64,000 bases of DNA from Candidatus Dormiibacterota bacterium (GTDB lineage: Bacteria; Chloroflexota; Dormibacteria; Aeolococcales; Aeolococcaceae), in NCBI GenBank assembly GCA_963718525.1, contig OY970355.1:769730-833729 (forward strand), in the 5' to 3' direction. The translations under genes and the position numbers were made by a program. Shown here piece by piece: positions 52,927-57,324 of the stretch. The stretch's first letter is position 1, and each line of letters opens with the position of its first letter. The notes beneath the pieces were generated by a model, which made no database searches, was not told where the DNA came from, and saw nothing but the letters and a program-made list of their open reading frames with translations.

Positions 52927-55135
52927 GCTCTATCAACGCTCCTTCGTGCACCTGGCGCGCATCGGCGAGCGGCACGTCAATGCAGCCGGTCACAACGACC
53001 CTCTCGCCTCCCACGGAGCCGAGATCACGGAAGGGGACCGAGTGCCGCCCTGCCAGCTCGTGCAATCGCACAAGTGCCTCCCTGGCGAAGCTGATGACGA
53101 ATCGAGATTGAATCTCTCCAAAGAGTATACCGGCCGCCCCGTTAATCAACCCTTCATCCTGTTCGAGCTCGTCCAATGCGACCCATGCGCCTATGTCGCC
53201 CAGCAGACATGACTCGGCGATTGCGACAGCGATACCCCCTTCGGCGCAGTCGTGCGCCGAATGCAGCAGCCCGGCTGCGATTGCCTCGAGGATGAACCCC
53301 TGGACCCGTCGCTCCAGCTCGATATCGAGACGGGGCGGGGTCCCCGAGTGGACGCCGTGAGCCATCCTCTGGTACTCGCTGCCATCGAGCTCCGCATCGA
53401 TCGGACCAACCAGCGCGATGAGGTCACCCTCCTCACGAAATCCCGCGGTGCATCGGTGCGCGACGTCGTCGATCACCCCGACCATGCCGATGACGACGGT
53501 CGGGTCGATCCCAGTTCCGCCCGTGTCGTTGTACAGGCTCACATTGCCGCTCACGACGGGGATATCGAGCGCCCTGCACGCCTCACCGATGCCCTCGACG
53601 GCATCGTGCAGGTCCCACCACACATCCGCATGCTCTGGATTGGCGAAGTTGAGGCAGTTCGTGACCGCGGCGGGCGTCGCACCGGTGGCGACGACGTTCC
53701 GCGCCGCTTCGCACACCGCGATCATCGCGCCACGCCTCGCGTCGAGCGCGGTGTACGTGGAGTTGCCGTCGGTGGCAAGTGCGAGGCCGAGCGCGGTTCC
53801 ATCGACACGAACCATGGCCGCGTCGCCTCCGGGAAGGATGACCGTCCCATCGCCAACCTGATGGTCGTACCTTCTGAAGACCGGCGCACGGCTGCCGAGG
53901 TTCGGGCTGCCGAGGAGTTGGAGCAGTGCCTTCCCGTGCGTCAACGACAGCGCACGGCCGGATACGTCGGGAGGTGCCGGGCGGTTCGGGCGCGGACCCG
54001 GCGCCCCACGCGGCGGAGCACCGTCGACGAGGAGGTCGAGCGGCAGGTCGCAGACTTCGTCGACACCATCACGCACCACAAAGTGCTGCTCGGGCAGGAT
54101 CACAGCGACCACGTCGGAGTGGAGGTCCCAGCGGTCGAACACCTCCTGCAGGGAGCGCACGTCCTCGGGCCGGGCAACGATCAGCATTCGCTCCTGCAAC
54201 TCGCTGAGCATCACCTCATAGGGGGTCATGCCGGTCTCCCGACGCGACACGCGCGCAACGTCGACCTCGATGCCGCACGCCCCGCGGTGCGCGAGCTCCG
54301 CAGTGCTTCCGCACAGCCCGGCTGCACCAAGATCCTGCATCGCGATCACGCGCGGATCGCCCGCGAGCTCCAGGCACGCCTCCATCAGGCACTTCTCGAG
54401 AAACGGGTTGCCGACCTGGACGGCGGGACGCCGGGCCGCACTGTCGGCGTCGAGGACAACCGACGCGAAGCTGGCGCCATGGATGCCGTCACGGCCGGTG
54501 TCGGCACCGACCAGGAGGACCAGGTTGCCGGCTCCGCTGGCAGTTGCGCGCGTCAGCTTGCCCTGCTCCACGATGCCGACGCACATCGCGTTGACGAGGC
54601 AGTTGGTGCGGTACAACTCATCGAAGTACAGCTCGCCGCCGACGGTCGGCACCCCGATGCAGTTGCCGTAGCCGCCAACTCCTGCAACGACACCGTCGAA
54701 GAGGTGACGCTGATGTGGCTCATCGAGCGGGCCGAACCGCAGCGAGTCCAGCAGCGCGATGGGACGCGCACCCATCGTGAAGATATCGCGCAGGATGCCG
54801 CCGACGCCCGTCGCCGCACCCTGGTACGGCTCGATCGCGCTCGGGTGATTGTGCGACTCGATTTTGAAAACGCACGCGAGACCGTGTCCGATATCGACGG
54901 CGCCGGCATTCTCTCCCGGGCCCTGGAGCACACGGGGTCCTTGGGTGGGAAGGCTGCCAAGCAGCGGCTTGCTCGTCTTATAGCTGCAGTGCTCGCTCCA
55001 GAGTGCCCCGACGATGCCGAGCTCGAGGCGATTCGGTTCGCGTCCGAGCGATTCGACCAGATGGACGTATTCCGAGCGCGTCAGCGCGACTTCGGCCAGA
55101 TCCGCGTCACTCGCTGCCGCGAGCACGCTGGTCAC
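52919..55135 (-). CDS. purL: Phosphoribosylformylglycinamidine synthase subunit PurL
   Basis: 738 aa from GTG 55135, which overlaps the purQ stop (GTGA 55132-55135). [12 protein letters not shown] and [21 protein letters not shown] are present. Confidence 0.95.
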
Positions 55136-55851
55136 GACGCCGCTGTGACCGGCATCACGCCGTTTCTGCTCATCGACTGCGCGACGCTCTCGAACAGCCG
55201 CATCCCGTCTGACGACCCCAGCAACGGCTCGCACGCACGCTCCGGGTGCGGCATCATCCCGAGCACGTTGCGACGCTCATTCACGATGCCCGCGATGTCG
55301 CGCGTCGATCCATTCGGCGTGTCGCCCTGGACCGGCGAACCATCCTGTCGCACGTACCGAAATGCCACCCGCTGCTCGCGCTCGAGCATGTCGAGCGTCT
55401 CGGCATCAGCAACGTAGCGCCCTTCCCCATGCGACACCGGAACCTGCAGGATCTCACCGCGCATGCACCCCGACGTGAACGCATTGTCACCAGCTTCAAC
55501 GCGCAACCAGCTCGGTGCACAGCGAAACTCGAGCGAGCTATTGCGCGTCAACGCTCCGGGCAGCAGGTGCGCCTCGCAGAGAATCTGAAACCCGTTGCAG
55601 ATCCCCCAGACCAATCCACCGGTATTCGCAAACTCGGTGACCAACTCCATCAGCGGCGCGAACCGAGCCACGGCGCCGGCCCTGAGGTAGTCCCCGTACG
55701 AGAATCCCCCCGGCAGGATAACGCAATCCGATCCCTGCAGGTCTCGATCCTTGTGCCAGAGCATCACCGCCTCATGCCCCGCCAGCTCAACCGCATGCCT
55801 GCAATCGCGATCGGACCACGTCCCCGGAAACACCGCAATGCCGAACCGCAT
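55132..55851 (-). CDS. purQ: Phosphoribosylformylglycinamidine synthase glutaminase subunit PurQ
   Basis: 239 aa from ATG 55851 ([17 protein letters not shown]). Nucleophile elbow GICNGFQIL and MMPHPER. Confidence 0.9.
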
Positions 55852-56032
55852 CAACGCCTCTCCAGCTGCCCCGACATCAGCCCACGGACGGCGCCGGGCG
55901 CCCAAGCTCCGGGCGCCACACGGCGAAATGCGTGGTAGGAATCAGCAAGGCGAGATGGTGCGATTCCCCCGATCAAGCCGGACAGCCGATGCCCGATGCC
56001 AACGCTCCCCCCAGCTGCGAGTCGCGTCCGAA

Positions 56033-56160
56033 GGGTGGGGAGGGCGTGGGCGGAGGCGGGCCGTCTCGCAGCCCGGGCTACCCCCCCGGGCGAGAGCGAG
56101 GGGCGGAACGGCGAAGGCGTTCCGCCCCCGTGCCCGCCGCAGCCCACGCCCTCCCCACCC
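56033..56160. repeat. 128-nt nested inverted repeat (outer 29-bp stem enclosing two hairpins) in the purS-purQ spacer
   Basis: The outer arms 56033-56061 and 56132-56160 are complementary at 27 of 29 positions, 19 of them contiguous. The inner hairpins are 56071-56077/56085-56091 (7 bp, 7-nt loop) and 56100-56110/56118-56128 (11 bp perfect, 7-nt loop). Confidence 0.8.
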
Positions 56161-56161
56161 C

Positions 56162-56431
56162 TCACCGCGCGTGCTCGCTAAGCACGCGGATGGACGCGAT
56201 GCGCAAGTCTTCGATCACCGTGTTGCGCAGCAGCTGCTCGCACATGGCCTCGACCTGCGCACGAACCGCGACCTCATCGTCGCCCTCGACCTCGAGCTCC
56301 AGGTGCTTGCCGACGCGCACGGAGCGCACCCCTGGGAAGCCCAGGCGATGCAGTCCGTCGCGCACCACGAGGCCCTGTGGATCGTTGACAACGGGCTTCA
56401 ACACGACCACGACCTCGACGGCGAACGTCAT
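56162..56431 (-). CDS. purS: Phosphoribosylformylglycinamidine synthase subunit PurS
   Basis: 89 aa from ATG 56431 (MTFAVEVVVVLKPVVNDPQG...). The start overlaps the purC stop (ATGA 56428-56431). The ORF-track start 56620 lies inside purC. Confidence 0.85.
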   Translation of the reverse strand: MTFAVEVVVVLKPVVNDPQGLVVRDGLHRLGFPGVRSVRVGKHLELEVEGDDEVAVRAQVEAMCEQLLRNTVIEDLRIASIRVLSEHAR

Positions 56432-57324
56432 TCGGCAGTGACCCCTGGGATCTCGATTCCGCAGATGCGCCGGGCAGCCTCGATGTAGCGCTTGGTGGTG
56501 CCGCGGACCACCTCGTCGGGAAGCGCGGGACCGGGATCGGTTTTGTCCCAGCCCAATGTCTCGACGTAGTCGCGAACGAACTGCTTGTCGAACGAGACCG
56601 CGGGCTCGCCCTCGCGCCACTCTGACATCTCCCAGAAACGCGACGAGTCCGGCGTGAAGATCTCGTCGATGAGAGTCAGCTTCCCGTTGATGAAACCGAA
56701 CTCGAACTTGGTGTCGGCGAGGTAGATGCCCACGCTCTCGCAGCGCGCCGTGGCGTAATCGAAGAGCCGTAGCGACGCGGACTCCAGCTCCTCCGCGAGT
56801 GACTGACCGAGGAGCCCGCGCAACTCGGTGCGCGAGATGTTGACGTCGTGGCCGTCATCCTTCTTGATCGCGGGCGTGAACCGCGGCGACGGGAGACGCG
56901 AGGAGTCGCGAAGCCCCTCCTGGAGCGGCTCGCTCGCGAGCGTTCCCTTGTCGCGATATTCCTTCCAGCCGGATCCACTGATGAATCCGCGGACCACGCA
57001 CTCGACGTCGATGCGCTGCGCGCGTGCGACGTGCATCGACCGCGGCAACCAATCGCTGCGCACCGCTTCAGGAATCGCCTCCTCGTCGTCGGCCAGCAGG
57101 TGATTGGGCATGATGGCTGCGGTCTGAGCGAACCACCAGCGCGACATCTGGGTCAGCACCGTGCCCTTTCCCGGAATCGGCGTCGGCAGGACGACGTCGA
57201 AGACGCTCAACCGGTCGGTCGCGATCATCAACAGCGTGCCGTCGGCAAGCTGGAACGTGTCCCGCACTTTGCCGCGCCGGAACAGATTGAGATCACCGAT
57301 GTCCGCAGCGCTCATCACCTGCAT
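56428..57324 (-). CDS. purC: Phosphoribosylaminoimidazole-succinocarboxamide synthase
   Basis: 298 aa. GKVRDTF, ATDRLSVFD and LADTKFEFG. Confidence 0.95.
   Translation of the reverse strand: MQVMSAADIGDLNLFRRGKVRDTFQLADGTLLMIATDRLSVFDVVLPTPIPGKGTVLTQMSRWWFAQTAAIMPNHLLADDEEAIPEAVRSDWLPRSMHVARAQRIDVECVVRGFISGSGWKEYRDKGTLASEPLQEGLRDSSRLPSPRFTPAIKKDDGHDVNISRTELRGLLGQSLAEELESASLRLFDYATARCESVGIYLADTKFEFGFINGKLTLIDEIFTPDSSRFWEMSEWREGEPAVSFDKQFVRDYVETLGWDKTDPGPALPDEVVRGTTKRYIEAARRICGIEIPGVTAE

Follow-up and report, generated by a model that had tools for sequence, protein, structure and literature searches.

Discussion of palindromic repeats in operons usually centres on RNA stability or termination, and translational coupling is thought to require overlapping or near-adjacent genes. 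Here we describe a 126-bp palindromic repeat element between purS and purQ in a 64,000-nucleotide stretch of contig OY970355.1 (GCA_963718525.1, positions 769,730 to 833,729) from a Candidatus Dormiibacterota bacterium, hereafter the window. The element lies at 56034-56159 (family boundaries GGTGGGGAGGGC...GCCCTCCCCACC) and is one copy of a low-copy dispersed palindromic repeat family of ~126 bp that is new and specific to Dormibacterota. From comparison of related sequences we propose, with a probability of roughly 0.6, that the spacer containing it is translated as a relay mini-cistron and so keeps the two genes translationally coupled despite the hairpin.

The closest described counterparts of the element are ERIC (127 bp), YPAL and the 107-bp Correia element, with which the family shares the form of a ~126-127-bp imperfect palindrome present at low to moderate copy number in either orientation. 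In two sources (PMC2229807; PMC10969869), ERIC and miniature inverted-repeat transposable elements, or MITEs, that bear an open reading frame (ORF) are described, like the family, at transcribed intergenic sites of operons, where they are co-transcribed, hold a contiguous open frame and are better conserved than their surroundings. The family differs from ERIC in showing no sequence similarity to it, in belonging to another phylum with 2-3 copies per genome detected, in lacking a TA or other target-site duplication and in its nested three-way-junction architecture; unlike that of ERIC-type MITEs, its ORF is a separate mini-cistron overlapping the stop and start codons of its neighbours and is not fused to a host protein. 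Rickettsia palindromic elements (PMC10969869, citing Ogata et al. 2000) are likewise palindromes with an open frame that is tolerated in translated sequence. They sit inside genes and join the protein, whereas the family element is intergenic, its peptide shows no protein-level constraint and its two orientations encode different peptides.

Repetitive extragenic palindromes (REPs), mobilised by RAYT transposases, are also extragenic, and their inverted doublets, REPINs, form long hairpins that persist vertically and often lie after stop codons (PMC3116915; PMC3337134; PMC3733652). REP units are 20-40-bp hairpins tagged GTAG or CGTC and arranged in inverted pairs (PMC3733652; PMC3116915). In contrast, the arms of the family are not short REP hairpins: they are not self-complementary, GTAG occurs in the loop of one inner hairpin (H2) only, and copy number, which in REP/REPIN-RAYT systems reaches tens to hundreds per genome, is one to two orders of magnitude smaller, with at most two exact-terminus matches per representative genome. 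Family copies resemble MITEs in being shorter than ~300 bp, encoding no transposase, having terminal inverted repeats and occurring as dispersed copies at sites that are found both filled and empty; the target-site duplication of MITEs was not seen. Because of this absence, and because REP/REPIN unit structure and copy number do not match, the family was filed as neither MITE nor REP/REPIN.

The second set of relevant systems concerns coupling itself. According to PMC12548453, coupling works best where genes overlap or lie very close together, operates via unfolding and/or reinitiation, is lost between phage f1 genes VII and IX if the upstream stop precedes the hairpin, and often joins subunits of one heteromeric complex (Huber et al. 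2023, via PMC12548453). Leader or relay arrangements such as ATGA and TGATG overlaps, phage f1 VII/IX and synthetic bicistronic designs (PMC12548453; PMC6302717) have in common with the relay proposed here that the upstream frame ends on or beside the next start and that the ribosome unfolds structure. The relay differs from such leader cistrons in that its frame is largely a repeated palindrome, inserted between genes that once overlapped directly. A brief look-up of a few terms in reviews on MITEs and translational coupling found no coupled relay mini-cistron. We know of no natural relay frame of this description.

The reading frame between purS and purQ

Both genes are encoded on the minus strand, purS at 56162-56431 (89 codons and a TGA stop at 56164-56162; Pfam PF02700 on the identical L001 protein) and purQ at 55132-55851 (239 codons, ATG at 55851-55849). 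The stop, the start and the 310-nt gap between them were confirmed on the sequence as an earlier sequence-only reading had given them. That reading had also stated that the other pur junctions overlap by 1-8 nt; the gene calls of the identical contig L001 give 1-4 nt. It rightly took the structure and the exceptional spacer to be real, but missed that the spacer is a reading frame linked at both ends. An ORF of 104 codons plus stop (55851-56165, minus strand), hereafter the relay ORF, spans the 310 nt exactly and reads the element in frame 0. Its GTG (56165-56163) overlaps the purS stop (GTGA) and its TGA (55853-55851) overlaps the purQ ATG (TGATG), which is the geometry of coupled cistrons, in which an upstream stop overlaps or lies a few nucleotides from the next start. 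The junctions of the window thus form the series purB/purC TGATG, purC/purS ATGA (the purS ATG overlapping the purC stop), purS/relay GTGA, relay/purQ TGATG and purQ/purL GTGA, the last a 4-nt overlap with the downstream purL. The relay ORF is absent from the public gene calls of the window genome.

The same arrangement was found in relatives. At nearly every pur or suc locus, no stop codon interrupts the element in the frame that ends at the downstream start (TGATG at purQ, ATGA at sucD), and relay-type frames often begin at a start codon overlapping the upstream stop. The element is read in frame 0 (GGT GGG GAG GGC ATG) in both orientations. Counted from element base 1, the stop of frame 0 overlaps or abuts the downstream ATG in 30/33 pur and suc loci, compared with 2/33 for frame 1 and 0/33 for frame 2. 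This phase is shared by 13 of 15 distinct context-and-length classes, over distances of 137-374 nt from element start to ATG (binomial P = 3.1e-5), and is kept in spacers of 148 to 390 nt. The non-element tail of the ORF (55854-56029, minus strand, in the window) varies from 20 to 248 nt between genomes with its phase kept, its length differences being multiples of three or offset by an indel within the element (L005).

The geometry extends to other operons. Frame 0 closes in an ATGA overlap both at the junction of an ABC ATPase with its permease, where the ATG is that of the permease, and at a transaldolase-like junction (L023). Between ParA-like and DUF503-like genes its entry is an ATGA or GTGA overlap and its stop lies 6 nt short of the ATG, whichever the orientation. 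In all, a stop on or next to the following start codon was seen in five independent contexts. In L057 (390-nt spacer) and L058 (277-nt spacer) the relay ORF is predicted by public gene callers, overlapping its neighbour by 1-4 nt at either end, and a divergent 128-nt variant of the element (L053, L054) retains the bridging ORF. Frame 0 further contains a start codon within the arm, ATG in most family members and GTG (56147-56145) in the window, preceded by the Shine-Dalgarno (SD)-like GGGGAGGG; in L032 (ABC ATPase) and L058 (sucC), the upstream host gene stops on a TGA inside the arm that overlaps the arm ATG. Each 5' arm carries an SD-like sequence, a start codon and an ATGA stop/start coupler.

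Several observations weigh against a translated relay. Open frames are common in 75-80% G+C DNA: frame 2 was open in 21/31 and the antisense strand in up to 27/31 distinct spacers, and in either orientation stops are usually absent from frame 2 as well as from frame 0, only frame 0 being used. The openness of the ORF was therefore downgraded as evidence, and the case for a relay rests on the phase and on the stop landing on a start codon. Loci within a context share ancestry, and the independent observations amount to ~5 contexts and roughly ten indel events. The frame is closed in the 124-nt element of L004, a metagenome-assembled genome (MAG) whose purS is apparently frameshifted, and stops 19 nt short of the ATG at the 127-nt element of L019, while the upstream link is out of phase in L003, L029, L030 and L035. 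We suspect that assembly indel errors could explain some of these exceptions, L004 among them. Substitutions in the tail show no third-position excess (84/62/71), the usual sign of coding. Finally, the loop and junction sequences of the element are strongly conserved, for which neither a purely structural role nor a relay offers a reason; this conservation suggests a sequence-specific partner, for example a transposase, a recombinase or an RNA-binding protein.

The product of the relay ORF had no Pfam family match, and the two orientations, M (the window arrangement) and P (its reverse), encode different peptides (GGEGMNCAGHGVGTPSPFRPSLSPGGVAPAARRPRSVHALPT and GGEGMNGAGPSRSRGYPPRRERGAERQRRSDPVPSAVHALPT, respectively). 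Together with the even spread of substitutions over codon positions, this ruled out selection at the peptide level. Should the ORF be translated, what counts would be the process itself and not the peptide made. The element peptide occurs in 17 protein clusters of a 5.8-billion-cluster collection, nearly all of them 51-67-aa 'hypothetical proteins' and one a fusion to PurS. This fusion, P0124 (139 aa, on an 86-kb ENA contig), is predicted to join PurS to the element peptide (…SEAPSMIARGGEGMNCAGHG…); in that genome the purS stop would have been lost or shifted, so that PurS would read into the relay frame. Several MAG contigs that bear MFD... names or belong to that ENA accession series have apparent frameshifts in purS (L004/L015) and sucC (L008, L020, L058) and 1-2-nt length differences in the G/C runs of the element.

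We propose that in an ancestor the element was inserted into a purS/purQ junction that had been an ATGA stop/start overlap, which would have parted two translationally coupled genes by a hairpin of about -100 kcal/mol. A hairpin of 126 nt would abolish coupling and could occlude a start codon 11-20 nt downstream. The insertion may persist because the entire spacer forms a small relay cistron: ribosomes would begin either at the GTG that shares bases with the purS stop (GTGA) or inside the 5' arm at its start codon, read through the element in frame 0, melting the hairpin en route, and terminate on the purQ start (TGATG), with reinitiation and/or a start site left unfolded as the outcome. As the element comprises 42 codons that are stop-free in the used frame on both strands, inversion in place would leave the relay intact. 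An untranslated hairpin would probably also be an RNase barrier or target, as in other co-transcribed MITEs. PurS/PurQ, SucC/SucD and ABC ATPase/permease are coupled pairs of subunits, and the empty site shows a direct overlap. The relay would restore the chain; we lean towards the view that purQ expression needs relay translation. Much more tentatively, the element may be a mobile palindrome specialised for stop/start overlap junctions, 'translationally transparent' and able to colonise the tightest junctions of essential operons and invert there without uncoupling. If so, a bacterial repeat element would here occupy a niche, and show an adaptation, not described before.

The arrangement places a very stable hairpin where coupling should be most sensitive, in essential purine synthesis and tricarboxylic acid cycle operons, and many species of this uncultured phylum have retained it. 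If the relay is translated, it provides a simple natural route for coupling over hundreds of structured bases, on a principle shared with synthetic bicistronic designs. It would account for the tolerance of such insertions and would add dozens of unannotated small ORFs to Dormibacterota genomes. With one element, two orientations and several spacer lengths, the loci also offer a compact test system for unfolding versus reinitiation. For annotation, they are a caution that 150-400-nt operon 'gaps' in GC-rich genomes may be translated.

Fold and covariation of the palindrome

The window copy matches the family consensus at 89.7% identity (profile search E = 3.9e-31), and no other inverted repeat of the window is as long. 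On the transcribed strand, its 5' arm (56132-56163) takes in the GA of the purS stop, GGGGAGGG and the in-frame GTG, and pairs as helix 1 with the 3' arm (56030-56061). The nested inverted repeat described by the sequence-only reading was recovered at its coordinates, with outer arms slightly longer than it gave: 32 nt, 91% complementary and reaching into the purS stop codon. Both inner hairpins were located where it had placed them. H1 (56100-56128, helix 3) has an 11-bp perfect stem (56100-56110/56118-56128) and a 7-nt loop, and H2 with its extension (56062-56099, helices 4 and 5) has a 7-bp GCCCGGG/CCCGGGC stem (56071-56077/56085-56091) with the 7-nt loop GGGGTAG on the sense strand, the stem being extended via CTCGC/GCGAG pairing. 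The G+C content, estimated earlier at about 80%, was 82% in 56033-56160, against 66.8% for the window.

The very stable Y-shaped RNA that had been anticipated was borne out by folding. The purS-sense (minus-strand) RNA is predicted to form a three-way junction of -118.6 kcal/mol, compared with -84.7 +/- 4.2 for dinucleotide shuffles (z = -8.1), and 0/200 shuffles were as stable. RNA of the opposite strand gave -114.1 kcal/mol (z -8.4). As an observation on the 5' arm, the minus strand at 56143-56161 reads GGGGTGGGGAGGGCGTGGG, with four G-runs matching a G-quadruplex motif; most relatives carry GCATGAAC in place of GCGTGGGC and hence no fourth G-run, making the motif particular to the window genome.

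The structure is conserved in relatives. For the comparison, loci were retrieved via PurQ only, so that the element sequence did not bias selection, and orientation was normalised. Identity of the element between genomes was 87-93%, against 54-70% at the third-codon positions of their purQ and purC (85% in one closer pair), and the rest of the spacer in these loci measures 20 to 182 nt. Across 35 distinct copies, 97.3% of cells in the five-helix structure are standard pairs. Compensatory (two-sided) changes were found at 18/48 pairs, compared with 6.7 +/- 1.3 in column shuffles and 0-5 in slid-partner controls; helix 1 contributes 11/18 pairs and helix 3 contributes 3, and all five helices covary; the sequence-only reading had proposed looking for covariation among relatives. 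Covariation alone does not prove selection on RNA, because arm-to-arm templated repair gives the same outcome in a DNA palindrome. The sense-strand fold was the more stable in 11/35 copies with a known direction of transcription, one reading of the palindrome being slightly more stable whichever way it is transcribed, and selection on the sense-strand RNA was ruled out on this count.

These data bear on the main rival for the primary function of the element, an RNA-level intra-operon processing or stability element, which RNase III would cut or which would block 3'-exonucleases, and that would work independently of translation and uncouple the decay of the upstream and downstream cistrons, with the ORF incidental. 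Such a role is compatible with the relay. As the primary function we consider it unlikely, although it deserves weight: the perfect 19-29-bp stem and very stable fold on either strand, the compensatory changes that keep the structure and the location of copies always in transcribed intergenic operon DNA all suit it. An orientation-independent duplex is also consistent with the inversions described below, Correia, ERIC and REP offer precedents (PMC10969869; PMC2229807), and one context, between convergent genes, has no use for a relay. However, it does not predict the conserved phase with the stop on the downstream ATG in five contexts, nor the conservation of loop and junction sequence, and RNase III would then cleave essential operons at formerly tight coupled sites.

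The repeat family and its contexts

The searches yielded about 50 family copies, and at least six intergenic junctions were occupied recurrently. A scan of GTDB, with one genome per species and the paired 12-nt termini as query, matched 15 loci, 12 of them in Dormibacterota with near-identical interiors: 4 at purS|purQ, 6 at sucC|sucD (succinyl-CoA synthetase beta/alpha) and 2 elsewhere, with up to two copies per genome. Four MAGs had two copies on separate contigs or positions, and the copy number detected is low. A pattern built on the interior only recovered 30 further copies from JGI metagenomes, adding the contexts ABC ATPase|permease, ParA-like|DUF503-like, large protein|transaldolase-like and a site at which a CcdA-like gene and another gene converge. 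Copies are 123-128 bp long with arms of 18-32 bp, and the terminal 12 nt GGTGGGGAGGGC are almost invariant. No second copy was found in the window by blastn-short, an inverted-repeat scan or nhmmer --max, and its 182-nt tail 3' of the element was not detectable as a degenerate copy in a profile search with filters off.

Relatives with PurQ 79-90% identical all carry the element directly 3' of purS, and close PurQ homologues all come from Dormibacterota, one MAG of which encodes a protein 100% identical to the PurQ of the window. A more distant relative (L056, PurQ 77% identical) is element-free and has a 4-nt purS/purQ ATGA overlap, which is the ancestral, empty state of the junction. A pur-specific role, as the sequence-only reading had entertained, is thus not supported: the same element lies at sucC|sucD and at least four other junctions, and the L056 junction is normal without it. 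Among the four roles which that reading offered, a REP- or MITE-like insertion gains from the dispersed copies and the empty site, whereas an attenuator is unlikely for an element that flips in place with no strand favoured. The many near-identical copies by which it would have recognised a generic repeat exist in a low-copy form, not as 'many'. Its picture of a neutral insertion, an empty relative together with a lack of covariation, holds in the first part but not in the second, since the stems covary and the element is more conserved than flanking synonymous sites.

Two copies at different loci of one genome (L022 and L018) are identical over 126/126 positions, which points to conversion or recent movement, and L013 and L019 have genome-specific variants in common. 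Tandem partial copies occur in L005-L007 and L017, and L032 (ABC ATPase|permease) and L017 represent singleton, lineage-specific contexts. When flanks were examined by eye, no target-site duplication was seen beside any copy; those of L017 and L026 instead extend the palindrome. No transposase was found in any 5-20-kb neighbourhood examined, and mobility is inferred.

These features would suit a selfish or neutral DNA palindrome without host function, kept by arm-to-arm repair, conversion or recent re-insertion and carrying its ORF by chance. The identical and variant-sharing copies, the tandem partial copies (L005, L017), the singletons (L032, L017) and the lack of a strand-specific signature all agree with it, and palindromes can covary without selection. 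We nevertheless judge it distinctly improbable: orthologous occupancy is kept across lineages with 15-20% coding divergence, conversion between element copies leaves the phase-preserving tail indels unexplained, and the same stop-on-start geometry recurs at five unrelated junctions.

Further observations concern partial and atypical copies. L017 (2754-3088) contains one full and two partial tandem copies; the full copy is 125 nt long with frame 0 closed, and its palindrome-extending flanks are CCGTTGAT and ATCAACCG. An extra partial arm, GGGGCATGAACTGCGCCGCACAC, lies 5' of sucC|sucD copies (L014 2142-2171, L018, L020, L030, L035), where it forms the SucC C-terminus REGGA*, and another, GCGCAGTTCATGCCCTCCCCACC, lies downstream of some pur copies (L004 9940-9980, L022). 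Such arms suggest that the element was once duplicated, in tandem or in part, or that host genes took over an arm as their end. One subfamily, whose arms have diverged (GGTGGGAAGGGGATGG...; L040 4214-4339, L041 7905-8027, L050 5217-5344, also L039 and L043), measures 123, 126 or 128 nt and flips in orientation as well. It separates a CcdA/DsbD-like gene from one that converges on it, with 23-28 nt to either stop codon, a position that suits a bidirectional transcript-end hairpin. A relaxed constraint in this convergent context is weakly supported (2/4 vs 31/35). Palindromes of ~130 bp with the exact 12-nt termini GGTGGGGAGGGC...GCCCTCCCCACC and unrelated interiors were also seen in unrelated phyla, in an Enterovirga sp. 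MAG (L010 5864-5993, L011 6905-7035), where the palindrome runs into the flanks, and in a Solirubrobacterales MAG (L021 534-662); they may be separate repeat families on the same motif or chance matches in GC-rich DNA.

Inversion in place and signals at the pur locus

At the same junction, the element occurs both ways round. At purS|purQ the M orientation was found in the window, L003, L004, L005, L012, L022, L024, L027, L031 and L044, and the P orientation in L002, L009, L034, L037, L038, L042, L048, L053 and L054; in a tree of 560 nt of upstream coding sequence, orientation differs within four sister pairs. Other flips were seen at sucC|sucD (L028, L029, L045), at ParA|DUF503 (L026 vs L036) and at the convergent ccdA locus (L041 vs L040, L050). 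Independent assemblies of the same population agreed in orientation and context (L002/L037, L005-L007, L027/L052 and L023/L047), which speaks against assembly artefacts and makes it unlikely that the copies outside pur loci are chimeric assemblies.

Inversion in place is the product expected of recombination or template switching between inverted arms, a process by which we infer that the flips arose. To our knowledge, small inversions between short inverted repeats need no dedicated recombinase. Chloroplast genomes recurrently show small inversions of segments bounded by short inverted repeats, according to the abstract of PMC12371153.

A programmed inverton, in which the arms are recombinase sites and the two orientations correspond to different expression states, would also explain inverted repeats flanking a segment that, at no fewer than four loci, lies one way round in some close relatives and the other way round in others. 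We hold it to be very improbable, since no promoter-like sequence was found inside or near the element (55700-56500), no neighbourhood examined contained a recombinase gene and replicate assemblies of one population show a single orientation; with both orientations frame-open and folding equally stably, no difference in output is predicted. The search of 55700-56500 was for a sigma-70-like promoter, and the promoter types of the phylum may differ.

Inversion as frequent as this excludes strand-specific RNAs, riboswitches among them. This leaves a pur-specific cis-regulatory RNA, whether riboswitch, attenuator or intrinsic terminator, that would set the purS:purQL ratio scarcely credible, despite a stable structure within the message directly 3' of the purS stop. 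Besides flipping, the element recurs at sucC|sucD and unrelated junctions, and the junction of L056 is normal without it. The GC-rich hairpin lacks the U-tract of an intrinsic terminator: no hairpin with a U-tract was found in 55700-56500, the sequence 3' of the 3' arm being CUUCGGACG, and no promoter-like restart site lies downstream. Nor does the element behave like a riboswitch or other curated RNA, having no covariance-model match, both orientations and no sense-strand energy bias. The earlier impression that it belongs to no recognised riboswitch class was upheld by Rfam, where the best match of the region at E up to 10 had E 0.12, from miRNA hairpin models far under their gathering scores, and where 8 other loci gave no matches at gathering thresholds. 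A tRNA/tmRNA search beside non-pur copies, prompted by a tRNA-like flank, returned nothing relevant.

Two further features of the pur locus were noted. An SD-like GGAGAGG (55857-55863, minus strand) lies 5 nt 5' of the purQ ATG in the window; when the 15 nt upstream of the ATG were compared per locus, many relatives were without it. In another Dormibacterota MAG (L055 1-5714; GCA_016464795.1), toxin-antitoxin cassettes interrupt the pur operon, with MazE/PIN, TacA/GNAT and PIN genes upstream of purQ, to which purS is not adjacent, and a PhdYeFM/PIN pair between purQ and purL.

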